From an uncultured Bacilli bacterium (lineage in GTDB: Bacteria > Bacillota_I > Bacilli_A > RFN20 > CAG-826): 64,000 bases of DNA. Position numbers and translations under genes: made by a program. Shown one piece after another: positions 9,591 through 38,771 of the stretch (the stretch's first letter is position 1; each line of letters opens with the position of its first letter). The DNA lies in NCBI GenBank assembly GCA_934700895.1, contig CAKUXV010000004.1, positions 75,765 to 139,764 on the forward strand, in the 5' to 3' direction. Under the pieces are notes generated by a model. That model was not told the DNA's origin. It worked only from the letters and a program-made list of their open reading frames with translations, and searched no databases.

Positions 9591-9834
9591 ACTTTAACTT
9601 TCCTGTTAAAATCCTAATTCGTATTATAATACCAAAACCACTTTTCAGTCTACTCTTTTACAGTATTTTCACTTTTTTCATCCGTCACGTAGTCTTTTTT
9701 CTTTTCTAGATTGTTTAACTTTCAATCCTTTTAGAGTGATAGAGAGACACCGCGCTGAAGAGGCAAAAACGAATCAAAAACAAGTTGCAATAAAAAAGGT
9801 TTAACACAAATTGTATTAAACCTATGTTTTCTTA

Positions 9835-10231
9835 TGGTGGAGTCGCGGGGAATCGAACCCCGGTCCGAAGAAAGTCCCCACACAGCATCTACAGTTTAGG
9901 CAGATTCGTTAACCCAGATCCGTCGAACCTACCAAGGGCGAATAAGGGGCGGCAGTTCATTTTCGTCCAACTTCCCCTGCCAAGAAGCCAGCTTATCGCC
10001 TTATCTTGCGCCTATCCCATGCCAAGGCGTGAACGCATGGGTAGACGTGCTCGCCCGCGATACGCGGAACCCTATGTCGGGTGCTTAATTAAGCAAGAGC
10101 AACGGACGCGCAACGGTTGTTGAGCATCCAGGGTTTGACAGTTTTGTCAGTTATTGTTTTTTGGTATTAAGGTTTACCAGACCACTGCATCCGTGCGTTG
10201 ACGGTTTCCCCGTCAAAACCAGTACGGCCCC
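9835..10231 (-). ncRNA. ssrA: tmRNA (SsrA)
   Basis: Minus-strand 5' end 'GGGGCCGUACUGGUUUUGACGGGGAAACCGUCAACGCACGG...' and 3' end '...CGGACCGGGGUUCGAUUCCCCGCGACUCCACCA' form the canonical tRNA-like acceptor/T-arm with CCA. An internal reading frame ends '...GUU GCU CUU GCU UAA UUA A', giving a tag ending VALA. Length is about 397 nt. Confidence 0.85.
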
Positions 10232-20945: not shown

Positions 20946-20951
20946 TCCTCC

Positions 20952-22910: not shown

Positions 22911-23742
22911 TTTCTAAAAAGTCATGGAATTCATGAATGTATCGGGCTTCCACTTCGTCGTGGTATTGCCCTTTTTCAATGAGAGGGGCCACTTCTTTTT
23001 GCAGTCTCTCCCAACTTTCCGCTTCCTTCGTGGGGATAATCGGATAGAAATGCACGTGGTTGGCTTCTGCCGCTTTTAAGTCGCCGAGGGCGTCTCCTAG
23101 CATCACCACGTTGTCTGGAGAATAGCCTAAGGCCAATCCTTGGGCGATGATGTCTTTCTTTGATCCCTTGTCTTGGCAAGCGCAATCTAAGAAATAAGGC
23201 ATAAGGCCACGGGAAGTCCATTCTTCGTAGACGGCATCCTTGTTTGCACTCGAAACGCCCAATAAATCCGCGAAGAGGCTAAGGGTTTTTAAAGTTTCCT
23301 TCACGCCTTCAAATTCTTGGGCAGGGGGCAAAGAAGCAATCGAGGCATTGACCAAATTTGACCACTCAAGAGCCATTTTTAAGCAGGCGGGGTGGCTGGA
23401 TTTGGTGATCCATCCCCCCAATGCTTCGTTACTTAAGGCCGAAGAATGATCGACGAAATCCTCAAAATCCTCTAAACCTTCCGGAGCATAACCATATCGT
23501 TCTTTCACAAAGAGCAGGATGGCCTTTAAGCCCTGGAAACGGTTGATGCCCCTCGTCAAAGAATAGAGATTCAACCGATTCCATTCGTTTAGGATCTCTT
23601 CGCGATGAGGCGGAAGAGGAAAGGCGTCGAAGAGACACGGACCGAAGGAGCGAAGATGCTTCACGGTCATCGTGTCCATGATCGTGCCGTCCGAATCAAT
23701 GCAGATGAGGAAATCGTGGGAGCGAGTTCCAGAAAGCATCAT
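22897..23742 (-). CDS. HAD-superfamily hydrolase (HAD-IA, phosphatase/beta-phosphoglucomutase-like)
   Basis: Motif I 'LICIDSDGTIMDT' and motif IV '...MLGDALGDLKAA'. Overlaps neighbouring genes, implying an operon. Confidence 0.65.
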   Translation of the reverse strand: MMLSGTRSHDFLICIDSDGTIMDTMTVKHLRSFGPCLFDAFPLPPHREEILNEWNRLNLYSLTRGINRFQGLKAILLFVKERYGYAPEGLEDFEDFVDHSSALSNEALGGWITKSSHPACLKMALEWSNLVNASIASLPPAQEFEGVKETLKTLSLFADLLGVSSANKDAVYEEWTSRGLMPYFLDCACQDKGSKKDIIAQGLALGYSPDNVVMLGDALGDLKAAEANHVHFYPIIPTKEAESWERLQKEVAPLIEKGQYHDEVEARYIHEFHDFLENGGK

Positions 23743-24590
23743 CAGACTCCGCTATAGGACGAGAATCCGCCATCGATGGGGACGCAGATGCCCGTGATGA
23801 AGCTGGCCGCTTCCGGGCTAAGAAGGAAGAGAGTCGCACCAACAAGCTCTTCCACTTCTCCAAACCGTCCCATCGGGGTCGCATTCAAGATTTTGTGGGT
23901 ACGAGCCGTGGGCGTGCCATCTTCGTTCCAAAGCAATTTGGCGTTTTGGGTCGTGGAGAAGAATCCCGGAGCAATCGCGTTGACGCGGATGCCGATGTGA
24001 GAGAAATGAACGGCGAGCCATTGGGTGAAGTTTTTCACCGCGGATTTGGCTCCGCTATAGGCCGGAATCTTGGTCAGTGGGGTATAGGCGTTCATGCTGG
24101 CAATATTGAGAATGGAGCAGCCTTTCCTTCCCACCATGTCTTTGGCAAAAACTTGGGAGGGGAGGAGGGTTCCGATGAAATTCAAATTGAAGACGAATTC
24201 AACTCCTTTCTCGTCCAAATCGAAGAAGGTCTTCATTTCTTTTTGGGCATCGTCAAGTTCGGCGAATTCGTTATCCGTGGTCGCGCGGGGATTGTTTCCA
24301 CCGGCGCCGTTAACGAGAATATCGCAGGGTCCGAAGTCCGCCAAAATCTTTTGATGGGCTTCTTCTAGCGCTTCTTTGTTCAAAACGTTAGCAGCATAAC
24401 CTTTTGCAATAAATCCTTCCTCCACGATTTTGGCAGCGGCTCTATCGGCGGCTTCTTGATTGAGGTCGAGAAGAGCGACTTTGGCACCGCATTGGGCAAT
24501 GGCTTCCGCAAGGCTGGAGCAGATGACTCCGCCGGCGCCAGTCACGACGACGACTTTGTCTTTCAAATCGATTTCAAATGGCAATTTCAT
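23742..24590 (-). CDS. Short-chain dehydrogenase/reductase (SDR), UxuB/KduD-like
   Basis: Start trimmed to 'MKLPFEIDLKDKVVVVTGAGGVICSSLA' (TGxxxGxG) with an AGGAGG ribosome-binding site upstream. The tracked ORF is N-extended. Confidence 0.8.
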   Translation of the reverse strand: MKLPFEIDLKDKVVVVTGAGGVICSSLAEAIAQCGAKVALLDLNQEAADRAAAKIVEEGFIAKGYAANVLNKEALEEAHQKILADFGPCDILVNGAGGNNPRATTDNEFAELDDAQKEMKTFFDLDEKGVEFVFNLNFIGTLLPSQVFAKDMVGRKGCSILNIASMNAYTPLTKIPAYSGAKSAVKNFTQWLAVHFSHIGIRVNAIAPGFFSTTQNAKLLWNEDGTPTARTHKILNATPMGRFGEVEELVGATLFLLSPEAASFITGICVPIDGGFSSYSGV

Positions 24591-24606
24591 GTTTTTGCCT
24601 CCTTTT

Positions 24607-26370
24607 TTAGAAAGTGGTGTTGGGCGTTCCGCAGAACGCGTCGACGGGAGAAATACCTTCAAACTTTCCCCTGCCTAATAGTTTATCGATGAGGACGTCC
24701 ACCGTCACAACATTCTTGTCATAAGCATTGATGTAATTTCTTGCCTGCGGGACATCGAAGAGGTGGAACGGGGAACAGAAGGAAATGAAGAGGACGGGCA
24801 ATTCGAACACATACCAAGGCACATCCGCGGTTCCTTTGGATAATTTCCAGGAAATGCGCTGCACCGTGTTATGGGAATCGAAATGGGCTAATTGGATGAC
24901 AAGATCATAATGATCGGTCAAATCATGGATTGGAGTCTTGTTGTTATAGACGTTCCCCACCAAACGGAAGGCCTCCATCGGGGGCAATTTCTTGGCTTTG
25001 TCCATCAAGGATTCGAAGATCGTAACTTCAAACCCTTCTTTTTCTAGTTTTTCTTTCACTTGCTCCGCGAGGGTTAAGCCCCGCTTCGGCATCATGAAGG
25101 CAAAGGGGTTTTCATCTTCTTGGCCCACAAGAAGAATCCGGCGATACTTTTCCGGCGCAAGAGGGAAGAGATGGTCTTCGTCTTTAACTAACGTAATCCC
25201 CTTTTCCGCGACTTCTTTGGTATAAACGGAATCTTCTTTCAAAACCTCTTTGATTTTTCCTTCGTCAAAAGAGGGGTAATCCTTCTCCCAATCGAAGGAA
25301 GCGTATCCGAGTTTGGCTTTTAAGCCTAGAATGCGGCGAAGCGCATCATTTAAGCGGGCCTCGTCGAAGATGCCTTTTTCATAGCCTTCGGCAATAAAGG
25401 ACAAATCTTCTTCATAATCGTTATAGAAGAGAATCATGTCCATCCCGCTAGCGATCGCTAAGGGCAACAAGTCTTTTCTTTTGCCCGCGCAGGTGAATCC
25501 GACCATGTGGGTCGCATCCGTCACGGCGAGACCGTTGAAGCCAAGTTTTTCTTTTAATAAGCCGTTGATCAGTTTCGGGCAAATCGTGGCAGGACGGTAG
25601 GCAAGTTCGGGGTGATTGGCATCCTTTCCTGCGTAAGAAGGCAAGGAAATATGTCCGACCATCACCATGTCTAGTCCTTCTTGAATTAAGGAGGAATAGA
25701 CCATGCCGAAGCTCTTGTCCCATTCTTCTTGGGATAAGGGGTTGGTCACGGGGGCTAAATGCTGGTCCCGTTCATCATACCCGTCTCCCGGGAAATGCTT
25801 CGCCGCGGCGAGCAAGCCCTGTGAATGGATGCCGCGAAGGAATTCAAGGGACATCGCCTTTACTTTTTCGGGGTCGTTGCCAAACGTGCGATTAGAAATC
25901 ACGGGGTTATGGAAATCATGATGGATATCCACGATAGGGGCGAAAATCGTATTGACGCCAACCAGGGATGCTTCCTTGGCCGAAACTTCACCAAGCTCAT
26001 AGGCTAGATGCAAGTCATTGGTCGCGGCGATTTTGGTTTCGCAGCCCACCAAAGTTCCGCCATTGAAGGCTCCGTTGCCACCGGATTCGCAATTGGCCGC
26101 CACAAAGCAAGGAATCGAAGAATATTTCTGCACGTTGCGGTTATGGTCATAGATGTCTTTGGCCGAACCGGGATTATAACGGACGCCTCCCGGCGCGTGT
26201 TTCTCCATGTTTTCTTTTAGATCCTCTTCCTTTTTGGAGGCGGTTAAATCGATGAAGAGCTGTTTGAATTTCGTCTCGAGATCCATGGAGGCAATGGTGT
26301 TCTCGACCCAGGCAATTTGATCTGGATTTAATTCGTATGGCTTTTTGGTCAAATCTACGAATTTAGGCAT
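24607..26370 (-). CDS. Glycoside hydrolase family 3 protein (NagZ/beta-glucosidase-like), cytoplasmic
   Basis: GH3 N-terminal domain with 'KHFPGDGYDERDQH' (KHFPGxG signature) and the Asp nucleophile region 'GLAVTDA'. No signal peptide. Confidence 0.8.
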   Translation of the reverse strand: MPKFVDLTKKPYELNPDQIAWVENTIASMDLETKFKQLFIDLTASKKEEDLKENMEKHAPGGVRYNPGSAKDIYDHNRNVQKYSSIPCFVAANCESGGNGAFNGGTLVGCETKIAATNDLHLAYELGEVSAKEASLVGVNTIFAPIVDIHHDFHNPVISNRTFGNDPEKVKAMSLEFLRGIHSQGLLAAAKHFPGDGYDERDQHLAPVTNPLSQEEWDKSFGMVYSSLIQEGLDMVMVGHISLPSYAGKDANHPELAYRPATICPKLINGLLKEKLGFNGLAVTDATHMVGFTCAGKRKDLLPLAIASGMDMILFYNDYEEDLSFIAEGYEKGIFDEARLNDALRRILGLKAKLGYASFDWEKDYPSFDEGKIKEVLKEDSVYTKEVAEKGITLVKDEDHLFPLAPEKYRRILLVGQEDENPFAFMMPKRGLTLAEQVKEKLEKEGFEVTIFESLMDKAKKLPPMEAFRLVGNVYNNKTPIHDLTDHYDLVIQLAHFDSHNTVQRISWKLSKGTADVPWYVFELPVLFISFCSPFHLFDVPQARNYINAYDKNVVTVDVLIDKLLGRGKFEGISPVDAFCGTPNTTF

Positions 26371-26448
26371 AGACGTCCCTCCTTTCTTTTCAATATCTTG
26401 GAAACGGGGGCAGGCCGAAGCCCGCCCCCAAGTTCAGTGATTTGGCGA

Positions 26449-27852
26449 TTAGGCCAAGGTGATGGTGATGGCGTTAGCGCCTTCGACGATCGAGAAGCAC
26501 CAATAACCAAACATTTCTTTACCACCCAACGCGTCTTTTCCGTTGTTCTTAACGGAAGAAACAGTCTTGCCTTCGGGAGCAGTGACCTTGAGGGCAAGGG
26601 TGTTGCCAACAACGAGTTTGTTCGCATCGGCCGGGACTAAGTGTTGGAAGTCTTGGCCAGCGCAGGTCATTGCGACGACCGTGCAGCCTTGGAGGTCTTC
26701 CGGAAGAACAAGGGTGCCGACTTTGACATCCGGGTTCTTGTCAGAGCCTTGGATGTTGACGCCGACTTTGTTGACGCCTTCTTGGATTTCGAAATAGAAG
26801 AATCCGTCATCGGAGGGCTTTTCAAGAGAGGTCGTGCCGAGGGTGACGCGGACGATGGTGTTGGAACCGGCCGGGGTCACTTTGACGGCGAGGTATTGTC
26901 CAACGACAACTTCGGCGCCATTAGTAACGGCAGTTCTTTCGCCGCCAATGGTCGGGGTGGTGAAGACTTCGACGATGGCATTATCCGGGCTCGGGATCGA
27001 GACGGTGCCTTTGGTCAATTGATGATCAATGGTGGCTTTCTTTTCGATGGCTTGGCCATAGGTGGCGCTATAAGCACGGGTGCCGGCGATCGAAACCGCG
27101 GGGGCCGGGTTCATGATCGGCATGGCGAGTTGAGCGTTGATCGCTTCGGTGTAGGAAGTGACATAGCCAGAAGCGTTGGTTTGAACGGTGTAAACGCCAG
27201 CCTTCTTGCCTTCGGCGCTCGGGAAGTCGGAAACGCCGCCGTCGGTGTTATAACCAACATAGGAAGAGGTCGCATCGAATTGGACGCCTGCTCCTTCCAC
27301 TTTTGCGGTGGGTTCAGCATCTAAGAATTCGCTAGCTTCGATGTTGCCAGTGGATAGACCGAATTCGCGGTGGAAATAGCTGTCCGCGCCGTCGTAAAGA
27401 GCGGTGGAGGTAGAGATGTCACCCGCGTTGTTGTGGGAAATCTTGACCAAGAATTCATCGATTTTGGCACGAGCGGCTTCTTCGGAAGCGAGCTTGGTCG
27501 GATTTTCCATGACGTTGGTGAGATAAAAATAATCAGATTCGACCTTGTAAACCAAAGCTTCAGCCTTGCTTTCAACACCCTTATCCTTGCCGTTGCGAAC
27601 AACGTGGAGGTAGAGGTTGCCAGCGGTTAAATCGTATTCGCCGGTGGTGACGTCGTCGATATTGTGCTCAAAGCTGGAAAGGGCTTTGTTGTCGACGGTA
27701 ACGTCGTATTTGGCCGTATAGGTGAATTGAACGGTGCCGGTCAATTCTTTGCTGAAGCCGTTGATGATTTCGGCTGCAGATTTTCCGCCGCCGCAGCTCG
27801 CAAGAAGAGCAGCCGAGGCGAGGACCATGATGATTTTGCTGTTGTTTTTCAT
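26449..27852 (-). CDS. Surface lipoprotein of unknown function (467 aa), beta-rich with repeated Thr/Val segments
   Basis: N-terminus 'MKNNSKIIMVLASAALLASCGGG' is a lipoprotein signal with lipobox. No catalytic motif recognised. Confidence 0.6.
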   Translation of the reverse strand: MKNNSKIIMVLASAALLASCGGGKSAAEIINGFSKELTGTVQFTYTAKYDVTVDNKALSSFEHNIDDVTTGEYDLTAGNLYLHVVRNGKDKGVESKAEALVYKVESDYFYLTNVMENPTKLASEEAARAKIDEFLVKISHNNAGDISTSTALYDGADSYFHREFGLSTGNIEASEFLDAEPTAKVEGAGVQFDATSSYVGYNTDGGVSDFPSAEGKKAGVYTVQTNASGYVTSYTEAINAQLAMPIMNPAPAVSIAGTRAYSATYGQAIEKKATIDHQLTKGTVSIPSPDNAIVEVFTTPTIGGERTAVTNGAEVVVGQYLAVKVTPAGSNTIVRVTLGTTSLEKPSDDGFFYFEIQEGVNKVGVNIQGSDKNPDVKVGTLVLPEDLQGCTVVAMTCAGQDFQHLVPADANKLVVGNTLALKVTAPEGKTVSSVKNNGKDALGGKEMFGYWCFSIVEGANAITITLA

Positions 27853-27872
27853 AACAATCTCCTTTTATTTGA

Positions 27873-28619
27873 TTAGGCCTTTTTGCCTAAAGAAACCCAT
27901 TTTTTCATCGTATCAAAGGCAACGATGATCTCCTTTTCCCAGAACGTCCAACTGTGGTCGGCTCCTGGAACGAACCGATATTCGACGCCCACGTGATTTT
28001 CCTTTAAAAAGGTATTGAATTCACGGCTGGGGCCGATGATGAAGTCTTTTTCTCCAATGCTCAAGAACACGTGCAGGTCCTTCTCCTTTTGCTTCAGGAA
28101 ATGGCTTTGCAAGGTTCCGAATTTGCTTTCGTCGATGAAGTCCGGCTTCGTTGCGGGCGAGAGGGCCACGCATCCATCGTATTTCTCGACGTTGGTGAGG
28201 TAATGGTACAAAGCGCCGTACCCACCCATCGAAACCCCGATCACGAATAACGGGGCTTCGGGGGAAAGGTTCTTAAAATTCCCATAGAGGTAATCCAGTA
28301 GGTCTTCTTCAAGGAAGTCATAATGGTTATCGATGGGGCCGAGGTTTAGGTACCACTTGTTCTCGCCGTTGATGAAGCAGGCGGCGAAGTGATTCTTTTC
28401 GCAAAGCGATTCGATCGTCGTGTTGTTGATCCAGGCTTTGCGATTGTCGCCGAAGCCGCATAGTCCAATGACGAGTGGGAAATGCTCCGTGCGGTGTTGG
28501 TAATATTCCTTATCGTGGTTATTGAGCGCTTCGTGCAAATTTGCAGACGGGAGAATCAAGGAGATCTCCACGCGGCGACCGAGGTGCTTGGCGTAGAAAT
28601 CAATGTCCATTCTCGCCAT
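27873..28619 (-). CDS. Esterase of the 'putative esterase'/tributyrin-esterase (EstA) family
   Basis: Nucleophile elbow 'GVSMGGYGAL' and C-terminal 'GADHSWTFWEKEI', matching the EstA/S-formylglutathione-hydrolase-like fold. Confidence 0.7.
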   Translation of the reverse strand: MARMDIDFYAKHLGRRVEISLILPSANLHEALNNHDKEYYQHRTEHFPLVIGLCGFGDNRKAWINNTTIESLCEKNHFAACFINGENKWYLNLGPIDNHYDFLEEDLLDYLYGNFKNLSPEAPLFVIGVSMGGYGALYHYLTNVEKYDGCVALSPATKPDFIDESKFGTLQSHFLKQKEKDLHVFLSIGEKDFIIGPSREFNTFLKENHVGVEYRFVPGADHSWTFWEKEIIVAFDTMKKWVSLGKKA

Positions 28620-28620
28620 A

Positions 28621-29931
28621 TCACTTGCCTCCTTGTGCCGCGGTCCGTTCGATCATCTTCTGGAGATAATATTCAGTCATCTCTTTGGCCGCGCGACGTT
28701 CTTCTTCAATCGAAGTACCGACGGAGCCAACGTAATGCGCGTAATTTTTGGTCGCGGCGTAATCGGTCGGGTTCTGGCAAGTGCCAGCGATTCCGAAAAA
28801 GACATTGTTGTCGTCCGCGATTTTGATGGCGGCGTTACGGTCCGTATCATCCTGAAGGGAGATGATGAAGTCAACGTTGCTATCCACGAGGGATTTGCAG
28901 CCAATCGACTGGGTGTTTTGGGACGTAATTGATTCGGTTTTGACCTCGACGTTATAGACATCGGCGAGATAGCCCGTCATGTAATCCATATAGGCTTGGA
29001 CAGTGTCGTTGACGGAGCTAGGGACGAGCAATCCAGCTTTTAAGCGACGTCCAGTACGCTTGACGTCCTGAACGTTTTCGTTGCTTTCATAAAGGGCTTT
29101 GACGGCTTCGTAATCGCTCGCGGCGAGCCAGTCAACGAGCTTTTGGGCTCCGTAGCTGTCGCTAGTTTTATCGAAGAACCGATCCAAGTTCGTCTTCATG
29201 ATGGTCGGATGGACGGTGTCGTTGAGCTCATATTGGTCAACGGCCGACATGGTTTCATATTCTTCCACCGATTTGACGGCCCAGTTGACGACGCTTAAGG
29301 ACAAGGCGGTCCCGTCCGCGTTTTTCATGGCTTTTCCGTTATCGACCGCATCGACGCAGGCCGCGAAGATCGGAGCCACGTGGGCGGTGTATTTAGTTAC
29401 CAAGTAGGAGAGGGATCCGGCTTTGAACGCGTTGTAATAGTTCGTGCAGAACCCACCCATGGTGGCGTTTTGGGTGCCAAGGCCGCTGGCTTTGATGGCA
29501 TTGGCGGCGAATTCGACGCCGTTGCAGGTCGAGATGACCGCCATCGGCTTTTGGTTCGCTAATGGTTTGTTGTACTGCAAGCCCGTATCCCAAGTTTGGT
29601 TGTTAACCATGTAGACCTTGGCATCGCTAGGCAAGTCCGAATTCGCGCGGTCGTAACTGATTTTGAATTTCTTCGCATCTTTTTCCGCTTCATAGCCCGT
29701 CACGGTGATGCCGTGATCGGCAAGAGCATCGTTCATGCCAAGCCACTTGTTCGTGAAGTGCTGGTCCTTGATGCCATAGTAGTTATAAAGAGCGAAGAAG
29801 ATCGTATTGGTCGTTCCCGCGAAAGGAACCACTGTTGCGTTTTGCTTAATGAAGAGGAACGGGGAGCAGGCCGAGGCGCAGGTGGCGCCAAGGCAAGCTA
29901 AGCCAACCATCATCAATTTGTTCTTTTTCAT
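28621..29931 (-). CDS. BMP-family (PnrA/Med-like) substrate-binding lipoprotein of a CUT2 ABC transporter
   Basis: Start trimmed to 'MKKNKLMMVGLACLGATCASACS' (signal peptide and lipobox, GGAGG ribosome-binding site upstream). A long basic-membrane-protein-type binding domain sits immediately downstream of two permeases and a tandem-NBD ATPase. Confidence 0.8.
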   Translation of the reverse strand: MKKNKLMMVGLACLGATCASACSPFLFIKQNATVVPFAGTTNTIFFALYNYYGIKDQHFTNKWLGMNDALADHGITVTGYEAEKDAKKFKISYDRANSDLPSDAKVYMVNNQTWDTGLQYNKPLANQKPMAVISTCNGVEFAANAIKASGLGTQNATMGGFCTNYYNAFKAGSLSYLVTKYTAHVAPIFAACVDAVDNGKAMKNADGTALSLSVVNWAVKSVEEYETMSAVDQYELNDTVHPTIMKTNLDRFFDKTSDSYGAQKLVDWLAASDYEAVKALYESNENVQDVKRTGRRLKAGLLVPSSVNDTVQAYMDYMTGYLADVYNVEVKTESITSQNTQSIGCKSLVDSNVDFIISLQDDTDRNAAIKIADDNNVFFGIAGTCQNPTDYAATKNYAHYVGSVGTSIEEERRAAKEMTEYYLQKMIERTAAQGGK

Positions 29932-31049
29932 TTCGCTTCTCCTCCCATTTCTTTGTATCCGAGACGCTTTTGCGTGCAGACGTAACGCACTTTCTTGACC
30001 CATTCGATGAAGCGTTGCTTATCGACCATGTAGACCAAGACCGCGAAGACGGAGAATCCGGTGATGAGGGATTGCACGTCGGCGGTGAAGCCAATCGAGG
30101 TGGCCGCGTCCATACCCGTGGTGAGCAAGGTCGTCGAGATAACGGCAAGGAGCAAGCCCACGATTTGGTTCGAATATTTGGCAAGGATGCCGCCAATGAA
30201 GATCGGCAAGAAGTTTTTGAATACGGTCGTGGAAGACCCAAGGTCCACTTTGACCTGAACGCTAGAGAGCGAGCAGGTATCCATGACTTGGTATAAGCCG
30301 ATGAGAGCGCCGGCAAGGATGAAGCAAGCAATGCAATTGGTCACTTCGTTGATACCGGTATCGACCGAAATCTTTTGATCATAGACGAGCGCGTTCTTGT
30401 TATACCCATATTTGGAATAGCAGAAGGCGAGCGACATGATGATGACGACGATTGCAAGAATCGGAAGGATAACAATCGGTTCAATGAAGAAGTTTCCGGT
30501 GATCTCGGAGTCGGTCAATTGACGGGTGGAGTTGCCGCCGACGATGACCTTGGCAATACCTTCAAACACCAAGCACATGCCAAGGGACATAACGATCGGA
30601 GGGAGCTTCAAGAAGATGAAGATCAAGGAGTTCAAGAATCCGAGGATCATGCCAAATAGCATCGTAAGGAGGAGGAAGAGGACAATGTTTTGAATCGTCG
30701 AGACGTCTCCATGGAGAACTTCCGAGGCAAGAAGCGCAGCAAGGATGCCGGTCGCGCCAAGGGAGAAGTCCATACGGCCCGAATTGAGGTTGGAGTTCAA
30801 GGCAAGGGCAGCAACGATCGTCAACGTCACGGACTTGATGAAGATCATGATGTTTTTGGTCGTAGCAGCCGAATCGCCGAATTTGACGAAGAGGGTTTCT
30901 CCCGCCGAATAGGCAAGGATCATCGCGATGAGCATGAAGATGATGGGCAAGGCGATGGAATAGAAGAGATTTCGTCCGAATTTGCGAAGGGGACGCGAAG
31001 TTGTGATGGGGTTGCGGCTATAGGTGGCCGGTTGCGTATAGGTTTTCAT
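29928..31049 (-). CDS. ABC transporter permease (CUT2/nucleoside-type)
   Basis: 373-aa polytopic membrane protein in the BMP-ABC operon; overlaps the lipoprotein gene start. Confidence 0.8.
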   Translation of the reverse strand: MKTYTQPATYSRNPITTSRPLRKFGRNLFYSIALPIIFMLIAMILAYSAGETLFVKFGDSAATTKNIMIFIKSVTLTIVAALALNSNLNSGRMDFSLGATGILAALLASEVLHGDVSTIQNIVLFLLLTMLFGMILGFLNSLIFIFLKLPPIVMSLGMCLVFEGIAKVIVGGNSTRQLTDSEITGNFFIEPIVILPILAIVVIIMSLAFCYSKYGYNKNALVYDQKISVDTGINEVTNCIACFILAGALIGLYQVMDTCSLSSVQVKVDLGSSTTVFKNFLPIFIGGILAKYSNQIVGLLLAVISTTLLTTGMDAATSIGFTADVQSLITGFSVFAVLVYMVDKQRFIEWVKKVRYVCTQKRLGYKEMGGEAK

Positions 31050-31064
31050 ATTTCCATTGCCTCC

Positions 31065-32597
31065 TTAGCGTGCCAGCATCTTGGTTCTGCTGTTGTACAT
31101 ATTGGCGAAGCTAACCACCAAGAAGATGATGCCCTTGGCCAAGTAACGGTAATCGGCGATGCCGATCGCGCGGAACAACTCATCGAGGAAGATGCAGAAG
31201 AATGCCCCAATGACGGCGCAGGAGACGCGAGAGCGCGGTCCTCCGCTGGTGGTCATGCCACCGAAGACAATGGCAATGACGACGTTTAAGCCGATCGTAT
31301 CGAGGATCGTGCCGGTCGAATAGGAGCTTCCCGATTTGCTCATTGCAAAGAGGAAGCCGCAGATGCCAAGTCCAACGCCGGAGATGGCGAAGGAGATGAT
31401 GCCGCTTTTCATGAGCGAGATGCCGTTATATTTGGCAGCCGTTTCGTTGGAGCCGATGAATTTGTTGCGGCGGCCAATCTTCGTGTAGTTGAAGATTGCC
31501 CAGAGAAGAAGGAAAAAGCATACGAGGAATCCGGCGTAGACGACCGTGGCCGTCGCGACGTTTCCGATTTTGCCTTCCCCGACCATTCCCGGGTCAATGA
31601 AGAGTTGGTTGCCCTGGGATTGGAGCATAACCGCGTGAATGGCGTTGAGGATATTCATCATCGTTAGGGTCATAACCATGACGGGGAGGTTCAGCATGTT
31701 CGCCAAAACGGCGTTGACGATGCCTAAGCCCGCGCCAAGGAGAATGGCGACGAAGAACGAGAGGAAGATGTTATGCGTCGAGTTCCAAAGAATGCCGGCA
31801 CAGGTAGCGCACATGAGGGACGCCGGACCAAGCGACATATCGAAGGAGCCGCTGGAATAGATGAAGACGGCGCCGGTAGCAACGATGGCGATGAAAACGC
31901 CGTTATTGATGACGTTGGTCATATCTCCGCCGTATCCGGTGACCGCTTTGGCGATATAGAAGGCCGCGATAAGGCAAACAAGCATCATAAACGGAATCAA
32001 ATTGATCCACATCGTCTTGTTCGAGATGAATTTCTTGAACGAGAAGGTGGAGCAGAATACGTCTAATCCGCGTTTGGCTCCTAGAATCGGAGTGTGGGTG
32101 GTGCCGCGCATCGCATGGTAAAGCGCGAAGAAGTCGTTGTAGAGATATTCAAGCAACACTTGTTCGTCTTTGACGCGAAGATCGCGGGCATTTGCTTCTT
32201 TGATCTTCGAACGTTTGGCAACGATTTGAATGCCTTTGACCGAATTTTTATATTCGACGTCATCGGCTTTGGTTTTGGTGGCCAAGCCTTGATAGGTCGA
32301 AGTTAATTCGTTGTAGGTCTTTTGGTATTCCGCGTCGATTTTGGCGCATTCATTGGCATAATCGAGGTTGATTTGCTTGATGGATTCTTTGACGATGGCA
32401 CGGAGTTCGCCCCGAAGAGATTTGAATTCGTCCTTCAAGGATTGGATGGACGAAGCGATTTCCCCCTTTTGGGTTTTGCGTTCTTCAAAAGTGAGAACGG
32501 CGCAGCGCTTAGCTTCTTCCACGATCGCCGGGGAGAAACGGAGGCCCTTGGGTGCATGGGCTTCGTAGATGACTTCGTTTTGAATGATGTTATCCAT
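31065..32597 (-). CDS. ABC transporter permease (CUT2/nucleoside-type) with a roughly 190-aa cytoplasmic coiled-coil N-terminal extension
   Basis: The first ~190 residues are hydrophilic and Lys/Glu-rich ('...SIQSLKDEFKSLRGELRAIVKESIKQINLDYANECAKIDAEYQKTY...'), followed by a canonical permease domain of about 320 aa. Confidence 0.8.
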   Translation of the reverse strand: MDNIIQNEVIYEAHAPKGLRFSPAIVEEAKRCAVLTFEERKTQKGEIASSIQSLKDEFKSLRGELRAIVKESIKQINLDYANECAKIDAEYQKTYNELTSTYQGLATKTKADDVEYKNSVKGIQIVAKRSKIKEANARDLRVKDEQVLLEYLYNDFFALYHAMRGTTHTPILGAKRGLDVFCSTFSFKKFISNKTMWINLIPFMMLVCLIAAFYIAKAVTGYGGDMTNVINNGVFIAIVATGAVFIYSSGSFDMSLGPASLMCATCAGILWNSTHNIFLSFFVAILLGAGLGIVNAVLANMLNLPVMVMTLTMMNILNAIHAVMLQSQGNQLFIDPGMVGEGKIGNVATATVVYAGFLVCFFLLLWAIFNYTKIGRRNKFIGSNETAAKYNGISLMKSGIISFAISGVGLGICGFLFAMSKSGSSYSTGTILDTIGLNVVIAIVFGGMTTSGGPRSRVSCAVIGAFFCIFLDELFRAIGIADYRYLAKGIIFLVVSFANMYNSRTKMLAR

Positions 32598-32614
32598 GAT
32601 AATTCCTCCTTTCC

Positions 32615-34696
32615 TTAAATCATGTATTTGATGATTTCTTCCTGCGATAGCTCAGGGCTACGTTGGAATTCGTGTTCGATTTTGCCATCTTTCATGATGA
32701 CGATGCGGTCGGACATGCCGATGAGTTCGGGAAGTTCTTCGGAAATCATGATGATGGATTTCCCTTCCTTCTTCATCTTGTAGAGCAATTGGTAGATGAA
32801 TTGTTTGACCCCGATGTCGACGCCACGAGTTGGGCAGTCGAGAATCAAGATTTCGGAATCGTTGGCAATCCATTTCGCGAACGACACCTTTTGCTTGTTG
32901 CCGCCCGAGAGGGTGTTGACGAGTTGCTGGGAGTCGTTGCACTTAATCTGCAAGTCGCGGATTTGCTTATGGACCAACTTCTTTTCCGGGGCCTTGAACA
33001 TGAAGAAGTTCAATTTGGCCACGTTGTTGATCGAGGCAATCGCGATGTTGTCGAAGATGCTCGCCTTGGTGGCAAGGGCTTCGACGTCGCGGTTTTTTGA
33101 GAGATAACCGATGCGATTCTTCATCGCGACGACTTCGCTGTTGATCTCTTTTTGAAGGTTTTCGCCGCTATAAACGTAACCGCCTTCGAGTTTGATCGCG
33201 CCGAAGAGGGCTTTGCCAAGGTCATGCATACCGCAGTCGGAGAGGCCGCCGATGCCAAGGATTTCGCCTTTGTGGAGTTGGAGATCGACGTGGCGGAGTT
33301 TGTTGCCGCGGATACCGTCGACCATCGAGAGAACGACTTGATCGCTGTGACTGCTGTCGTAATCGCTACGGTAGTAATCGCCTTTAAGCTCGCGGCCAAT
33401 CATGAATTTCTTGATCGCATCCGGATCGAATTCATTCTTTTCCTTGGAGAGGTTGGCAACAATGTTGCCGTCGCGGAGAACCGTCAAGGTATCGCACTTC
33501 TCCATGAGTTCATCCAAGTCATGGGAGATGAAGAGGACGGATTTCCCCGCGTCTTTAAGCTCGTTCATCTTCTTATATAAGAGGTTGCGGCCGATTTCAC
33601 TCAATGCGGTCGTCGTTTCGTCGACGATGAAGATTTCCGGGTCTTTGTTCAAGCACTTGGCAATTTCGATCAGCTTGCGGTCCTGCATGTCATAAGCGAA
33701 GGTCGGGGCACCCGGTTGAATATGAGTGACGCCGATCTTGCGGAGGGCGCGTCCGGAATATTTCTTGAGTTTCTTGCCGTTAACGAAGAGGCCGAAGAAG
33801 ACGTTCAAGAAGCCCTTGCGCATTTTCTTAAGGAAGGAAAGGGCAACGGTATCTTTGAGGGAATTTCTCGCATTGAGATAGTGGTTCTTCAAATACGTCG
33901 CATCCGTTTTGATCCATTGACGGTGCATATAGGATTCATCGTCATCGCGTTTGCGCTTCTTCTCATAGGCTTTGGTGGTCTGGGCGAGTTCGTAATTCCT
34001 GCGGCGTTCCACCAAGTTGGCATCGAGGCCTTCTTTGTTCTCCTCGTACTTTTTGCGGATTGTTTCGCAGGAAGAAGAATAGGCATCAAAAGAAGCTTGG
34101 GCAACTTTGGCAAAGCGCGCATCTTCTTCTTCCGTTTTCGCTTTGATTTCTTCTTCGTAGGCGTGCGCTAAAGCCTCATATTTGGATTGGAGGTCTTTCA
34201 GCATCGCGGGCAAGGCGGCTTTCTTGGATGCCTTGTCGCTTAATCCGGAGAGCTGCTCGCGATAAGAAGCAACGCGGGCGTCGAATTCTTGAAGTGAAAG
34301 GTCAAAAAGTGGGGAGAAGTTCTCCACCTTCTTGTCTTCGAAGAAATGTTCGCCGGAAAAGTTGTTGAGCTCGCCAAGGTAGATGTTTTCGGCGACCGAG
34401 ATGTTTCCGATCGTTCCGTTTTCCTGGACGATAATGCCGATGCCGCCGGCAAGTGCATCGACCATGGAGGCGGGCTTCCATTCTTTGCCGTGGTACTCCA
34501 TGTATCCACTGGTAGCTTCGTAGATTCCCGTCATGATGGCAGACATCGTGGATTTGCCCGAGCCGTTCTCTCCAATGAAGCCGCGGATTTCGCCGGGATA
34601 GATGGCGATATCGACGTCATTGAGAGCGATGGTCGGTCCAAATTGCTTCACGATGTGCGTAGCTTTGAATATTGGTTCTTTCATATCGTTCCTCAC
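32615..34696 (-). CDS. Tandem-NBD ABC transporter ATPase (693 aa) with a long coiled-coil insertion in the first nucleotide-binding domain
   Basis: NBD1 Walker A 'GENGSGKST' and NBD2 signature 'LSGGNKQKV' are present. A roughly 200-aa charged insertion ('...EEIKAKTEEEDARFAKVAQ...YEKKRKRDDDESYMHRQWIK...') lies between NBD1 Walker A and its Walker B 'IFIVDETTTALS'. Confidence 0.85.
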   Translation of the reverse strand: MRNDMKEPIFKATHIVKQFGPTIALNDVDIAIYPGEIRGFIGENGSGKSTMSAIMTGIYEATSGYMEYHGKEWKPASMVDALAGGIGIIVQENGTIGNISVAENIYLGELNNFSGEHFFEDKKVENFSPLFDLSLQEFDARVASYREQLSGLSDKASKKAALPAMLKDLQSKYEALAHAYEEEIKAKTEEEDARFAKVAQASFDAYSSSCETIRKKYEENKEGLDANLVERRRNYELAQTTKAYEKKRKRDDDESYMHRQWIKTDATYLKNHYLNARNSLKDTVALSFLKKMRKGFLNVFFGLFVNGKKLKKYSGRALRKIGVTHIQPGAPTFAYDMQDRKLIEIAKCLNKDPEIFIVDETTTALSEIGRNLLYKKMNELKDAGKSVLFISHDLDELMEKCDTLTVLRDGNIVANLSKEKNEFDPDAIKKFMIGRELKGDYYRSDYDSSHSDQVVLSMVDGIRGNKLRHVDLQLHKGEILGIGGLSDCGMHDLGKALFGAIKLEGGYVYSGENLQKEINSEVVAMKNRIGYLSKNRDVEALATKASIFDNIAIASINNVAKLNFFMFKAPEKKLVHKQIRDLQIKCNDSQQLVNTLSGGNKQKVSFAKWIANDSEILILDCPTRGVDIGVKQFIYQLLYKMKKEGKSIIMISEELPELIGMSDRIVIMKDGKIEHEFQRSPELSQEEIIKYMI

Positions 34697-34852
34697 GATG
34701 ACATTCTAGCAAAGCTCTTTTCAAGTCTTATCGCGTTATCTTTACTCTTTTATTTCATTTTTTTGTCTTAGGAAGAAAGGGCTTTCTTAAAAGATTCAAA
34801 AAGCCGATGTCAAAAAATTGCATACTGGAAGCGTTTACAATACAATTTTCCT

Positions 34853-37222
34853 ATGAAAAGTGAGATTACCCTTGTTAATTTTGAAAAGAAAATACCCATC
34901 AGTTTTTCTATCGTCCGTTTTGATGCAATTTTTAGACATATGCACCCCATCGCTCAACTTCTTTTGGTCCTAGAAGGGGAATGCGATATCTACATCGGTA
35001 ACAAAAGCTACCATGCAAGCAGCAACGACATGGTGGTCATCAACCCTCGGCAATTTCATCATATTCTCAGCAAAGACGGGGCAACCATCATCTCCGTTTT
35101 AATCGATGTCAAAGGGTTTACGATGGAAGATGACGGGGATGGTCTCTTCTTTAACTTGAACACGATGGAAGTGAAGAACAACCCCCGTTATAACACGATT
35201 CGATACCTGGTTTATTCGATTATCGCCTACAACACGATGGAGAACGTGAACTCCATCTACACGAACCGGGCCATCGCCTATTCCTTCTTTGCCCAACTCG
35301 TCAACGACTTCAAGATGACCTCAGAAGACAAAAATGCTTTGATGGGGGAATCGCTAGATGCAATCAACCGTATCAACACCTACGTCAACGAGCATTATAA
35401 AGATAAAATCACCCTGTCTTTCTTAAGCAAGAAATTCAATTATTCCGTTTCCTACTTATCCCGTTTATATACCTCTTCTTTTGGGGAAAGTTTCATCAAC
35501 GTCTACGATAACCTCCGCGTGAATTATTCTCTCAACGACTTACTGCAGGGGAATAAGACTATACAAGAAATCTCGGAAGAACATGGATTTGAAGAAGTCC
35601 GTAGTTACATCCGCGCGTTCAAGAAAATCCATGGGATGACGCCGAACGAATATCGAAACAAGCATCAGAAATCCACCGGTGAGAACGTTTTGATCGATAA
35701 CAAGCTCTTCCGAAAACAAGCATTAGACAAAATCTTGTCCCGTTATGAGCAATATGGCTCTCCAAGTGCCCACAAAAAAAGCGAAACGCGGGCCACCGAA
35801 ATCCTTTTGCCTTTGGATTTGAAGGCCAAACGAACGACCTTGGCCCCTTGTCATTTGATCATCGAACTTTCCGCCGCGGCGGATTTAGAAAGTGAAGAAG
35901 TCCTTTTAGCCTTGGAACAGGCTTCTCGCGACATGGGGTTCGATTATGTGATGATTCGTCATCTTCTCTGCTATAAATCCCTTTTATTGCAGCAAAACGA
36001 GAATAACCAATGGGCGGTCAATTACGTTCACTTGAATCGCATTGTACGGAAAATCCTTTCCTTCCACGCGTTGCCCTATTTGATTTTCGAATACAACGAA
36101 AGCCTCTTGTCCTCTTCCGATTTCTACGCCTTATCCACCCAAATCATCGATTACTTAAATTTAAAATATGGTTCGCTTCTCGATGAAACAATGGTTTCCT
36201 TCTCCTTCTACCGCGACAAACAAACTTACACAAACCCCGCTTCTTCTTCCTCCTTCTCTTTCTATTGCGCTTTGCTAAACGAGGCACGCAAAAGAGCACC
36301 AGCCTGGAAAATCGGAAGCCCGGTCTTTTACCGACAGGATATGGAAGAGAAGAAAGATTATTTTTCCTTCCTGCGCGCGTTAAATAATAAAGAAAAGGAA
36401 GTGGATTTCATCCCCATCCGTTACCAGTACGACTTCCCGGGCAACGCTTTATTGTCTAAGGACCGCCACGCGATGAAGCGTTTCATCGAAATGCTTAAGA
36501 ATAACCACGGCTTTCTCGAAAACAAAATGTATTTTCAGGGCATCGGCTTCACGGATTCGAATAGCTTGTTAAACGACACCCTCTACGCGTCGAGTTTCTT
36601 AATCCAAAACTACATGGAGAATCGCCAAGATTTATCTTCTTATTCCTTTGCTTCCCTCTTTGACCGTTCTTTGCTCAACGCCTATAACCCCAACCCCTAT
36701 CAAGGGATGAATGGCTTATTTACCTACAATTTTGTGAAAAAGAGTTCCTATAACGCCTATGTGTTCTTGTCGCGAATGGGCAACGAAATCCAAAAACAAT
36801 CGGATACGTATCTGCTTTCCGCCTCCTCCAACAAGATTGTCCTTCTGCTAAATAACTACAATCATTATTCCGACCTATTCGCCGACAGGGAATACTTTGA
36901 GATATCGAACCTCAACCGTTATAATTGTTTCCCCAAATCCACCAATGTGACCTACAAAATGTCGTTAAGTGGATTTAACGGCTCGGCTTATCGCATGAAA
37001 ATCTCTACCATCGGCAAGAATTCGGGATCGAGCTATGACCGGTGGTTGGAAATGGGGGGCGTTAAAACTTTAAGCGAAGAGGAAGCCGCCACCTTACGTG
37101 AATTAAGCGAAATCCATTATTCTCTGGCCGAAGACTATCTCACCTCGAATAAGTTCGATTTTGAGGTGACCGTATCGCCTTTAGAAGCCAAAATCGTGGA
37201 AATCGAATTCAAGGTTGCATAA
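34853..37222 (+). CDS. AraC/XylS-family regulator (N-terminal cupin-like sensor plus AraC HTH) fused to an uncharacterised C-terminal domain of about 500 aa
   Basis: Residues ~180-285 form a typical AraC double HTH ('...KITLSFLSKKFNYSVSYLSRLY...IQEISEEHGFEEVRSYIRAFKKIHGMTPNEYR'). The following ~500 residues have no motif I can name. Gene is divergent from the ABC operon. Confidence 0.75.
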   Translation: MKSEITLVNFEKKIPISFSIVRFDAIFRHMHPIAQLLLVLEGECDIYIGNKSYHASSNDMVVINPRQFHHILSKDGATIISVLIDVKGFTMEDDGDGLFFNLNTMEVKNNPRYNTIRYLVYSIIAYNTMENVNSIYTNRAIAYSFFAQLVNDFKMTSEDKNALMGESLDAINRINTYVNEHYKDKITLSFLSKKFNYSVSYLSRLYTSSFGESFINVYDNLRVNYSLNDLLQGNKTIQEISEEHGFEEVRSYIRAFKKIHGMTPNEYRNKHQKSTGENVLIDNKLFRKQALDKILSRYEQYGSPSAHKKSETRATEILLPLDLKAKRTTLAPCHLIIELSAAADLESEEVLLALEQASRDMGFDYVMIRHLLCYKSLLLQQNENNQWAVNYVHLNRIVRKILSFHALPYLIFEYNESLLSSSDFYALSTQIIDYLNLKYGSLLDETMVSFSFYRDKQTYTNPASSSSFSFYCALLNEARKRAPAWKIGSPVFYRQDMEEKKDYFSFLRALNNKEKEVDFIPIRYQYDFPGNALLSKDRHAMKRFIEMLKNNHGFLENKMYFQGIGFTDSNSLLNDTLYASSFLIQNYMENRQDLSSYSFASLFDRSLLNAYNPNPYQGMNGLFTYNFVKKSSYNAYVFLSRMGNEIQKQSDTYLLSASSNKIVLLLNNYNHYSDLFADREYFEISNLNRYNCFPKSTNVTYKMSLSGFNGSAYRMKISTIGKNSGSSYDRWLEMGGVKTLSEEEAATLRELSEIHYSLAEDYLTSNKFDFEVTVSPLEAKIVEIEFKVA

Positions 37223-37234
37223 AACCCACCTAGC

Positions 37235-37270
37235 AAAAAGGCTGCAGGACCTCCCTGCGGCCTTTTCGTT
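37235..37270. terminator. Bidirectional rho-independent terminator between the AraC-fusion gene and the convergent flavodiiron gene
   Basis: AAGGCTGCAGG-ACCTCC-CTGCGGCCTT hairpin flanked by AAAAA and TTTTCGTT. Confidence 0.6.
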
Positions 37271-38481: not shown

Positions 38482-38771
38482 AAATAAAACCTCCACTTCT
38501 ATTTTAGCAGGCATGGGGAAAGGCGGATAAAGGAACGCTTATCCATCACCACCATTAGGGGTTGTAACCTAAAAAGTGTAGTCCCTACACTCTACAATTC
38601 GTGTTTGGTATCAAAAAGCGAAACGTTTAACGACATTAGAAATACGCTGCTATCCAGTTTTCGTTGACAAACACTTCATCCATTTATAAGCGCCAAGAGG
38701 TTGATAGTTAAGGGTAAAATTTTTTAAGTATCAGAATGTTAGTACTTACAAATTCCTATTTTGACGAATAT

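Follow-up and report, generated by a model that had tools for sequence, protein, structure and literature searches.

Results

The regulator and its N-terminal AraC module

This study concerns a regulatory gene in a 64,000-nucleotide stretch of contig CAKUXV010000004.1 from an uncultured Bacilli bacterium; the whole analyzed stretch is hereafter called the window. The gene is an uninterrupted open reading frame (ORF) with an ATG start at 34853..37222 on the plus strand, and its product of 789 amino acids (aa) consists of a cupin, a double helix-turn-helix (HTH) domain and then a pseudoenzyme domain resembling the enzymes of glycoside hydrolase family 39 (GH39). On the opposite strand the gene of a CUT2-type ATP-binding cassette (ABC) ATPase begins 156-168 bp upstream of the regulator, at the head of a divergent, tightly packed array of 11 genes (19896..34684, minus strand, gaps of -13 to 79 bp) which is its putative regulon. 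Sequence profiles and a structural model indicate that residues ~314-789 of the regulator are a complete GH39 beta-xylosidase fold, TIM barrel plus beta-sandwich, and both catalytic glutamates of that fold are lost.

The N-terminal part of the protein has the normal AraC architecture of a sensor and a double HTH, as the first-pass annotation of this DNA had stated, with AraC_binding, HTH_18 and HTH_AraC all above their Pfam cut-offs. The cupin of AraC type occupies residues 1-105 (34853..35167, plus strand), is matched by AraC_binding/Cupin_2 at residues 27-75 (AraC_binding 31.2 bits, cut-off 21.1) and carries the motif HxH...Q...H (H29, H31, Q35 and H69). This metal-type motif, regulator residues 29-69, lies at window positions 34937-35059. 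Among 158 aligned representatives of the fusion family described below, H29 is present in 102, H31 in 113 and H69 in 119, and position 35, which is Gln in the clade of the window protein, is Glu in 110. The cupin can be read from its sequence as having the classical metal-binding pattern HxH...(E/Q)...H, kept in approximately two thirds of the representatives, and metal-binding cupins in the PDB are matched by the family profile at E ~1e-7. To our knowledge such a motif is unusual for AraC-type sensor domains, and it is absent from AraC itself.

The cupin is followed by a helical linker (residues 106-165; 35168..35347, plus strand), which has the lowest column entropy of all segments, and by the AraC/XylS DNA-binding domain with its two HTH motifs (residues 166-275; 35348..35677, plus strand). 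The latter is recognized by Pfam at residues 191-269 (HTH_18 64.6 bits, cut-off 33.6, E 1e-17; HTH_AraC 43.2 bits, cut-off 26.6, E 4e-11) and by matches in the PDB to Lin2118, YesN, MarA, SoxS and Rob. In the AlphaFold2 model of the regulator, built on 36 homologues, the cupin barrel reaches to about residue 84 and is succeeded by helices (111-129 and 135-153 in the linker), the HTH region ends at about residue 275 and a further linker helix covers residues 283-301. A Foldseek comparison of the N-terminal module with the PDB returned ToxT, Rns and CsvR, the first two over ~270-285 alignment columns. Canonical AraC, ToxT and Rns, which are proteins of ~270-300 aa with a cupin and a double HTH, are matched in structure and in Pfam families by residues 1-275 of the regulator, whereas the window protein runs ~500 residues further and its cupin has the HxH...E/Q...H motif. 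An appendage of this size is atypical, as had been remarked, against a textbook AraC protein, but the architecture as such is common, being found in at least 150 clusters at 50% identity.

Integrity of the reading frame

Full-length, collinear homologues of the regulator, about 55 in the protein collection, share 33-96% identity and the same Pfam architecture. The collinear regulator is encoded at 10 genome loci from metagenome-assembled genomes (MAGs) of uncultured gut Bacilli, 'Mollicutes' and Erysipelotrichaceae; related loci were retrieved with a 19-sequence regulator alignment and are numbered from L001. In NCBI, proteins of the query clade go under 'AraC family transcriptional regulator [Bacilli bacterium]' and 'helix-turn-helix domain-containing protein [Mollicutes bacterium]'. 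A family profile of 789 positions was searched against 1.84 billion cluster representatives (50%-identity clusters), of which 3164 score E<=1e-30. The GH39-like domain is present in all of the best 150 of these 3164, and nearly all of the 150 match the profile over approximately its whole length, the one clear exception being a 520-aa protein which corresponds to the C-terminal part only. The start of the regulator in some database records is placed 29-30 codons later (759-760 aa); the long form of 789 aa is preferred because residues 1-29 are conserved (M1, P15, S19, D24).

That the 789-aa ORF is an artifact, in which a sequencing or assembly frameshift joined an AraC gene to a GH39 gene, is hardly credible and was rejected. 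The same ORF aligns collinearly from residue 1 to residue 788 in independent MAG assemblies, in isolate genomes and in more than 150 cluster representatives, with the linker of residues 276-313 present throughout; nothing was found in support of a frameshift, and the alternative start of the 759-760 aa records touches the N-terminus only. No full-length match to a single-domain family was found either, so the two findings that the first-pass annotation had named as fatal to a fusion did not turn up.

A complete GH39 body without catalytic residues

Over the last 500 residues Ser (11.2%), Asn (7.4%) and Tyr (7.2%) are moderately enriched; these residues have a mixed alpha/beta fold in the model and contain no hydrophobic segment of transmembrane type, all as first described. 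The term "uncharacterized", which had been used for this part, is only in part apt, since Pfam recognizes Glyco_hydro_39 (PF01229) at residues 477-753 (profile 183-456 of 472) with 33.1 bits against a cut-off of 26. The architecture was described nowhere in the literature that we searched (AraC with GH39, GH39 with helix-turn-helix, pseudoenzyme sensors, Rsp/Rbf with glycosyl hydrolase). The mean predicted local distance difference test (pLDDT) score of the AlphaFold2 model is 84.4, and it is >90 for most of residues 350-660. Its top Foldseek matches in the PDB are the GH39 beta-xylosidases 2bs9, 1w91, 6yyh, 2bfg, 1px8, 8i0j and 4ekj, at E 3.6e-27 to 6e-25, with template modeling (TM) scores of 0.74-0.80 (normalized to the enzyme) and ~515 columns over the whole 500-residue enzyme. 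Next in rank are GH39 alpha-L-iduronidases and beta-glucuronidases of clan GH-A, which are uronic-acid enzymes (ranks 13-30). The family sequence profile finds the GH39 xylosidases as well, at E 1.9e-61 to 6e-36, with profile positions 326-786 on enzyme residues 11-503.

The GH39-type (beta/alpha)8 barrel, supported by profile, Foldseek and catalytic column analysis, covers residues 314-640 (35792..36772, plus strand), and the GH39 beta-sandwich domain covers residues 641-789 (36773..37219, plus strand), where a second stretch of the hidden Markov model (HMM) alignment (profile 700-786 on GH39 enzyme residues 405-503) coincides with strands in the model. This complete two-domain fold is common to the regulator and to XynB of T. 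saccharolyticum (1PX8), XynB1 of G. stearothermophilus (2BS9/1W91) and the D. thermophilum enzyme (6YYH), which are matched by the family profile at E 1e-58 to 1e-61 over the whole enzyme and by Foldseek with TM scores of 0.74-0.76 (normalized to the enzyme). Unlike these, the window domain is fused behind a transcription-factor module and has an extra conserved insertion of ~20 residues at 667-693 (36851..36931, plus strand). This signature of the fusion family, (Y/N)NYxHY..L(Y/F)A....RY..F, lies between the two HMM stretches, in a part that is not aligned with stand-alone GH39 enzymes, and its positions are well kept in the 158 representatives (N668 in 128, Y669 in 143, H671 in 130, R689 in 120, Y690 in 132, F693 in 149).

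The catalytic residues of XynB, which we take to be Glu160 (acid/base) and Glu277 (nucleophile), agree with the NEP and TE(Y/W)N positions in our alignments. In the HMM alignments the acid/base motif W-P-F-E-I-W-N-E-P-N falls on query residues 446-455, T-M-V-S-F-S-F-Y-R-D, so that Glu160 is replaced by Tyr453 (codon 36209-36211, plus strand), and the nucleophile motif H-I-T-E-Y-N falls on Y-F-Q-G-I-G (local sequence YFQGIGFT), so that Glu277 is replaced by Gly563 (codon 36539-36541, plus strand), a position where the clade has G, N, K or D. His54, Asn159, His228, Tyr230 and Trp315 correspond to Arg369, Phe452, Arg523, Gln525 and Ala600, and the counterpart of Asp319 (Asp604) is the sole survivor, which leaves the query with one of the eight active-site signature residues. 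Because both catalytic glutamates are replaced, the domain as aligned cannot be a retaining glycosidase, and glycosidase activity is predicted to be absent. The suggestion of the first-pass annotation that the appendage is a degenerate TIM barrel of glycoside-hydrolase type was correct, with a beta-sandwich in addition.

Conservation within the clade was examined as column entropies over 32 sequences. Mean column entropy is 1.58 bits for the cupin, 1.22 for the linker helices, 1.34 for the HTH domain, 2.13 for the TIM barrel and 1.61 for the beta-sandwich. At the subsite positions 369, 452, 453, 523, 525, 563, 600, 607 and 608 the entropy is 2.2-3.5 bits and so equals or exceeds the barrel mean. 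Motifs kept in the C-terminal part are LLNDTLY (572-578), Asp604, G618 through K630, SGSSYD (724-729) and the segment 664-699, which holds the signature of the fusion family. Since the subsite positions vary while the regulon is conserved, the old sugar pocket is, as far as these columns indicate, not maintained for a common ligand in this clade.

A family of cupin-HTH-GH39 fusions

The window regulator belongs, by its profile matches, to a large uncharacterized Firmicutes family of cupin-HTH-GH39 fusions. In length, most of the best 150 representatives fall within 800-860 aa, and many have canonical WNEPD and (I/L)TEWN motifs. Of the 158 aligned representatives, 62 keep both catalytic glutamates, 56 the nucleophile only, 9 the acid/base only and 31 neither; all eight signature residues are kept in 51. 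The proteins with neither glutamate fall into at least eight groups, and because several of these have their nearest relatives (34-41% identity) among proteins that keep both, catalytic residues appear to have been lost repeatedly in the family while the full domain was kept. From this repeated loss it follows that the GH39 domain must have a function independent of catalysis.

Relatives of one member with intact motifs, P0111, are encoded by Paenibacillus, the Bacillus cereus group, Neobacillus, Robertmurraya, Clostridium estertheticum, Romboutsia, Terrisporobacter and a Caldicellulosiruptoraceae isolate, and have been named automatically (NCBI, JGI) 'GH39 family glycosyl hydrolase', 'helix-turn-helix domain-containing protein' or 'xylan 1,4-beta-xylosidase'. 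The fusions of cultured Firmicutes (Paenibacillus, Bacillus cereus group, Neobacillus, Clostridium estertheticum, Romboutsia, Terrisporobacter) have the identical collinear architecture at ~22% identity to the window protein, with which they share the cupin motif and the 667-693 signature. They have neighbors like those in the window, namely a BglP-like GH3 (~40% identity), HAD_2, an esterase and a sugar transporter. They differ from the window protein in being ~40-50 residues longer, in that many keep WNEPD, TEWN and all eight signature residues, and in the setting of their loci, which have transporters of MFS_2 or SBP_bac_1 type and are without BilR and Uxu genes.

The best NCBIfam match of the window protein is AryK of Staphylococcus aureus (NF047455), with 105.8 bits against a cut-off of 850 over residues 35-383, that is ~100 residues into the barrel. 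Relatives score 82-200 bits on this model (P0111 200 bits), and the alignments of the family members P0104, P0105, P0047 and P0102 start at model position 19 and end between positions 701 and 744 of 759; residues 30-751 of P0104, for example, align to positions 19-739. The match to S. aureus Rsp (NF033869) is weaker, 44.3 bits against a cut-off of 400, and covers the N-terminal module only. Judged from these alignments AryK is a distant homologue with the same layout and not an orthologue. In AryK, and in the more distant Rsp and Rbf, the N-terminal AraC module is followed by ~450-500 residues, as in the window regulator; however, the targets of AryK and Rsp are genes for toxins, surface proteins and central metabolism, and neither regulator is known beside an ABC/esterase/BilR operon. 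Staphylococcal proteins of AryK/Rsp/Rbf type have been described as atypical members of the AraC family, with the HTH near the N-terminus and a divergent C-terminal region with a presumed role in signal recognition or multimerization (PMC7241556, PMC3922988), and we found no mention of a glycoside-hydrolase origin of that region in the literature searched.

The intergenic region

Upstream of the regulator the candidate operator box GTCAAAAAATTGCAT (34809..34823, plus strand) has two mismatches to the cross-locus consensus GTCAAAAAAGTGCAG and overlaps the putative -35 of the regulator. A second box, inverted and degenerate (GACAAAAAAATGAAA; 34753..34767, minus strand; 4 mismatches of 15), faces the ABC operon. 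Of 12 loci, 11 have a box of ~15 bp with <=3 mismatches to the consensus ahead of the regulator gene, and in 10 of the 12 it is on the same strand and at -44 to -75 from the ATG; in L009 the inverted copy alone is present, at -141. In most loci an inverted copy starts ~53-56 bp further upstream. In the window (34756-34772 / 34804-34820), L004, L006, L007 and L010 no inverted repeat of the intergenic region scores higher than the box pair, with arms 30-43 nt apart in four of these five and, in L010, arms of 36 nt which are 5 nt apart. Both arms carry the same variant (TACTCA / TGAGTA) in L003 and L004. A third box, GTCTAAAAATTGCAT, at 34923-34937 on the minus strand (+70 in the regulator gene, 3 mismatches), is present only in the window and in the 95%-identical L001 and was not accepted as established. 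Matches at <=3 mismatches number three in the 64 kb, which equals the chance expectation.

A putative promoter of the regulator, read by eye from the sequence and from the aligned intergenic regions at 34818..34846 (plus strand), consists of the -35 TTGCAT (34818-34823), a 17-nt spacer and the -10 TACAAT (34841-34846). The TACAAT ends 6 nt before the ATG and a Shine-Dalgarno sequence is absent (34841-34855), which suggests a near-leaderless mRNA for the regulator in the window, L001, L003, L004, L007 and L010; L006, L008 and L009 have instead an inserted leader resembling a Shine-Dalgarno sequence ahead of the regulator. On the operon side a palindrome like the cre sites of CcpA, TGAAAnCGnTTTCA, is clear in L006-L010, ~20-40 bp upstream of the ABC ATPase start, where it adjoins a conserved -10 (TAAAAT) of the ABC operon, and is perfect in L007 and L010. 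The corresponding site in the window (~34710-34725) is degenerate, with ~5 mismatches, and is not claimed there.

The divergent operon

The first gene of the array (32615-34684, minus strand) encodes the CUT2-type ABC ATPase and starts probably at the ATG at 34684, preceded by the Shine-Dalgarno sequence GAGGAA, rather than at the GTG at 34696. Inside its first ATP-binding cassette it has an insertion of ~190 residues (about 112-300) which is highly charged and coiled-coil-like. Two permeases (BPD_transp_2) follow on the same strand at 31065-32597 and 29928-31049, the first of them with an N-terminal extension of ~185 residues; homologues of the ATPase and of the first permease have the same lengths, 686-695 aa and 491-510 aa. 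Next comes a BMP-like lipoprotein of 436 aa (28621-29931, minus strand), which belongs to no family by sequence and whose model resembles a type I binding-protein fold. Its lipobox is ASAC, its true start lies 24 codons inside the listed ORF, and it has 257 'hypothetical' homologues. The remaining genes, all on the minus strand, encode an esterase of PF00756 (27873-28619), whose PDB relatives are tributyrin and ferulic acid esterases; a second lipoprotein (26449-27852) with no Pfam or NCBIfam family, 467-688 aa and 30-50% identical across loci; a BglP-like GH3 (24607-26370), homologous over its full length to BglP, a retaining beta-glycoside phosphorylase (5VQD, E 1.3e-111), with the sequence KHFPGDG....DQH, the KHFPG...D-x-H dyad motif (PMC8950772); a short-chain dehydrogenase/reductase (SDR) of mannonate-oxidoreductase (UxuB) type (23742-24662; 431.6 bits, cut-off 281); two genes downstream of the GH3, a haloacid dehalogenase (HAD)-like hydrolase, HAD_2, with a DSDGT motif (22897-23742); the long form of the gut bilirubin reductase BilR, an Fe-S flavoenzyme of 652 aa (20952-22910; NF045599, 1021.7 bits, cut-off 750); and the mannonate dehydratase UxuA (19896-20945). 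BilR carries the HGDR motif ('EIHGDRLVG') that serves as a criterion for this enzyme (PMC10769871).

The ABC operon had been called nucleoside-type, and this label is not supported. The first lipoprotein has no Pfam family at E<=10 apart from a chance-level match, and Bmp (PF02608) is not among its hits; in the PDB it has no sequence match, and as a profile it finds only the 'basic membrane lipoprotein' 3s99 at E 0.38. Its model (pLDDT 88.6) is best matched by PnrA/RfuA in Foldseek at E ~5e-6, but with TM scores of 0.34-0.54 and 8-10% identity, and sugar-binding proteins score almost as well. The content of the operon, with an esterase, a GH3 phosphorylase-like enzyme, a HAD protein, a UxuB-type oxidoreductase, UxuA and BilR, points to a glycoside, glucuronide or bile-pigment substrate. 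Homologues of UxaC, KdgK and Eda were searched for in the 64-kb window and not found there.

Synteny and BilR context

The regulator stands divergent to the array of ATPase, two permeases, lipoprotein and esterase in L001-L010, L018, L019 and L022, at least 13 loci in all, and in syntenic loci the identity of the regulator falls to 32-35% while that of the ATPase stays at 67-78%. Fusions with intact motifs from other Firmicutes (L013, L015, L016, L017) adjoin a GH3, ~40% identical to that of the window in L015-L017, with a glycoside transporter (MFS_2 or ABC) adjacent in L013 and L015-L017 and, in most, also an esterase and HAD_2. GH3 orthologues, in most cases with a HAD_2 gene close by, go with the AraC-GH39 fusions of Paenibacillus, Robertmurraya and other loci. 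Such a pairing of a retaining GH3 phosphorylase with a HAD protein of the beta-phosphoglucomutase superfamily suggests a possible route from a beta-glycoside to a beta-sugar-1-phosphate.

Of the six gut Bacilli loci with enough sequence, five have BilR linked to the module of ABC genes, lipoprotein, esterase and second lipoprotein. BilR (1021.7 bits in the window, 997 in L018) is accompanied in both of these by the UxuB-type SDR, UxuA, GH3 and HAD. L019 (1032 bits) has the UxuB-type SDR, GH3 and HAD, and directly upstream of its regulator (L019:1-2775) are UxaC, an Eda gene of 2-keto-3-deoxy-6-phosphogluconate (KDPG) aldolase type and a PfkB kinase resembling KdgK; judged by their sequences these genes and the UxuB-type gene of the operon would complete much of the glucuronate pathway. 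L022 (973 bits) has the UxuB-type SDR, UxuA and a second paralogue of old yellow enzyme (OYE) type, with no GH3 or HAD, and L021 (1028 bits) has a second OYE paralogue as well and no AraC-GH39 regulator. In L020, which is without BilR, the module is followed by a two-component system. The second paralogues, of OYE/2,4-dienoyl-CoA-reductase type, lie beside BilR at L021:14076-16022 (minus strand) and L022:15638-17578 (plus strand), score ~424-442 bits on the BilR model, which is below its cut-off, and are ~32% identical to BilR; they recall BilV, reported in bilR neighborhoods (PMC13252198).

The bilR operons described so far are bilQ-bilR-bilS and bilR-bilV, with BilQ a regulator of MarR type and BilS flavodoxin-like. 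The BilR array of the window differs from these in that it faces a regulator of AraC type. In the BilR literature searched there was no AraC regulator and no glucuronate-catabolism neighbor of bilR, and two 2026 preprints mention no transporter.

Other features of the window

Downstream of the regulator, in convergent orientation, lies an fprA-like flavodiiron gene with ODP and flavodoxin domains (37285-38514, minus strand), and between the two genes there is a terminator-like hairpin at 37244-37258. A 274-aa protein with a HipA_C kinase domain only is encoded at 38772-39596 (minus strand). Positions 8001-10000 of the window have a low GC content of 0.337, against ~0.47 for the window, and a strongly negative GC skew.

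Discussion

We consider it likely that the regulator, which comes from a gut Bacilli lineage resembling RF39/'Enterosoma', is a one-component protein of AraC type with a retired GH39 enzyme as its C-terminal part, and that it recognizes the inverted boxes and governs the divergent operon, probably together with its own gene. Control of the operon is inferred from the conserved divergent synteny and the inverted boxes. In the first-pass annotation this regulatory link had been suggested from the divergent arrangement in the window; it is now backed by synteny that persists down to 32-35% regulator identity and by the conservation of the boxes, and what is not supported is the nucleoside-type character of the target. 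In the proposed mechanism the regulator, probably as a dimer or a higher oligomer, would bind the two inverted ~15-bp boxes (GTCAAAAAAGTGCAG), whose starts are ~55 bp apart and which lie between the near-leaderless regulator promoter and the divergent operon promoter, and would activate the 11 genes for uptake and catabolism in response to an imported small molecule. The effector would most likely be read by the cupin module, with the dead GH39 body as a retained scaffold for oligomerization or allostery. This combination is favored because the pocket of the GH39 domain is unconstrained in the clade, because the cupin, linker and beta-sandwich are conserved, and because the domain is retained at full length despite repeated catalytic decay.

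The GH39 remnant could itself be the sensor, in which case an imported glycoside or glucuronide would be held near the former cleft without turnover and would switch the HTH domains allosterically. The commonest degenerate state in the family, nucleophile kept and acid/base lost (56 of 158), is what would be expected of a non-hydrolyzing binder, and all eight signature residues persist in 51 representatives. The family is also found persistently beside glycoside-handling genes (BglP-like GH3, HAD, esterase, transporter), cleft-lining motifs are kept in the query clade (D575, D604, G618-K630), and GH39 and clan GH-A include the uronic-acid enzymes that appear at Foldseek ranks 13-30. On the other hand, all mapped -1 subsite positions in the query clade are more variable than the barrel average although the regulon is conserved, and every member also has the cupin, a candidate sensor with better conservation. 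A ligand-sensing role for the appendage, which the first-pass annotation had offered as one possibility, is on this evidence doubtful in the query clade as far as it would proceed through the vestigial active site, and as a rival reading sensing by the remnant is the less likely one for the window protein, though still a live alternative; the state with nucleophile kept and acid/base lost keeps it alive for other family members. We place cupin sensing with a GH39 scaffold slightly ahead of it on the conservation patterns. Far less probable is a dual role as 'trigger enzyme', with the protein acting in the cytoplasm as a GH39 glycosidase and also regulating transcription. Family members are named as glycosidases by NCBI and JGI and both catalytic glutamates are present in 62 of 158 representatives, so that this may hold for other members of the family, but an active enzyme was rejected for the window protein, in which the acid/base position is Tyr453, the nucleophile position Gly563 and seven of the eight signature residues are replaced.

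Several observations weigh against the scheme of a cupin-sensing activator with a GH39 scaffold. The assignment of the cupin as the most likely sensor is drawn from conservation patterns, and activation rather than repression is assumed from the habit of the family. Parts of the former cleft (LLNDTLY 572-578, D604, G618 through K630) are still conserved in the clade, the insertion at 667-693 could form a new ligand site, and the predicted TM score (pTM) of the regulator model is 0.64, with uncertain inter-domain geometry. As regards DNA binding, the operon-facing box is degenerate in the window (4/15 mismatches), the intergenic region of L022 has no box at <=3 mismatches to the consensus, and a scanner for consensus promoters and terminators called nothing in the intergenic region of the window. 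Finally, L021 has the ABC-esterase-BilR module without an AraC-GH39 regulator.

Candidates for the effector, taken from the regulon, are a beta-glycoside, glucuronate or a glucuronide, and a bile pigment. A tentative and, in our estimate, improbable extension is that the operon is an undescribed locus for utilization of bilirubin conjugates in uncultured gut Bacilli, switched by the AraC-pseudo-GH39 regulator. Uptake of bilirubin glucuronide, an acyl (ester) glucuronide, would then fall to the BMP-like lipoprotein and the ABC importer; glucuronate would be released by the PF00756 esterase, the BglP-like GH3 or both; the UxuB-type oxidoreductase and UxuA, in one locus also UxaC, KdgK and Eda, would feed it to catabolism; and BilR would reduce the freed bilirubin, with a BilV-like paralogue in some loci. 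The regulator would sense the conjugate or a product of it through the metal-type cupin or the uronidase-related GH39 remnant.

Databases already contain this architecture, and long AraC regulators of AryK type are genetically known; the system is not of a new kind. Against the literature searched, three points appear to be new: the identification of the C-terminal region as a GH39 body, the finding that a minority of representatives keep both catalytic residues, and a fully degenerate clade standing in front of a BilR-containing operon. A comparable reuse of a module derived from a carbohydrate-active enzyme is found in the RsgI anti-sigma factors of Clostridium thermocellum, where it serves sensing in an extracellular position on a membrane-anchored protein. 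The concept of reuse for sensing is the same, but the module of the window protein is cytoplasmic and fused directly to a DNA-binding protein.

The long C-terminal region of a widespread group of Firmicutes AraC regulators, of which AryK is a distant member, is thus seen as the body of a GH39 enzyme, and automatic names such as 'GH39 family glycosyl hydrolase' and 'xylan 1,4-beta-xylosidase' are unsafe for cupin-HTH-GH39 proteins. Hall et al. leave open the order of bilirubin deconjugation and reduction, and how bilirubin is deconjugated (PMC10769871); the locus joins importer, esterase and glucuronate-pathway genes to BilR and offers concrete, clonable candidates for the deconjugation question. 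If the bilirubin reading is true, the locus would provide the first sensor and the first importer proposed for microbial bilirubin metabolism. The family itself is a natural series from apparently intact enzyme fusions to fully dead domains, well suited to the study of how enzymes are recruited into regulators.

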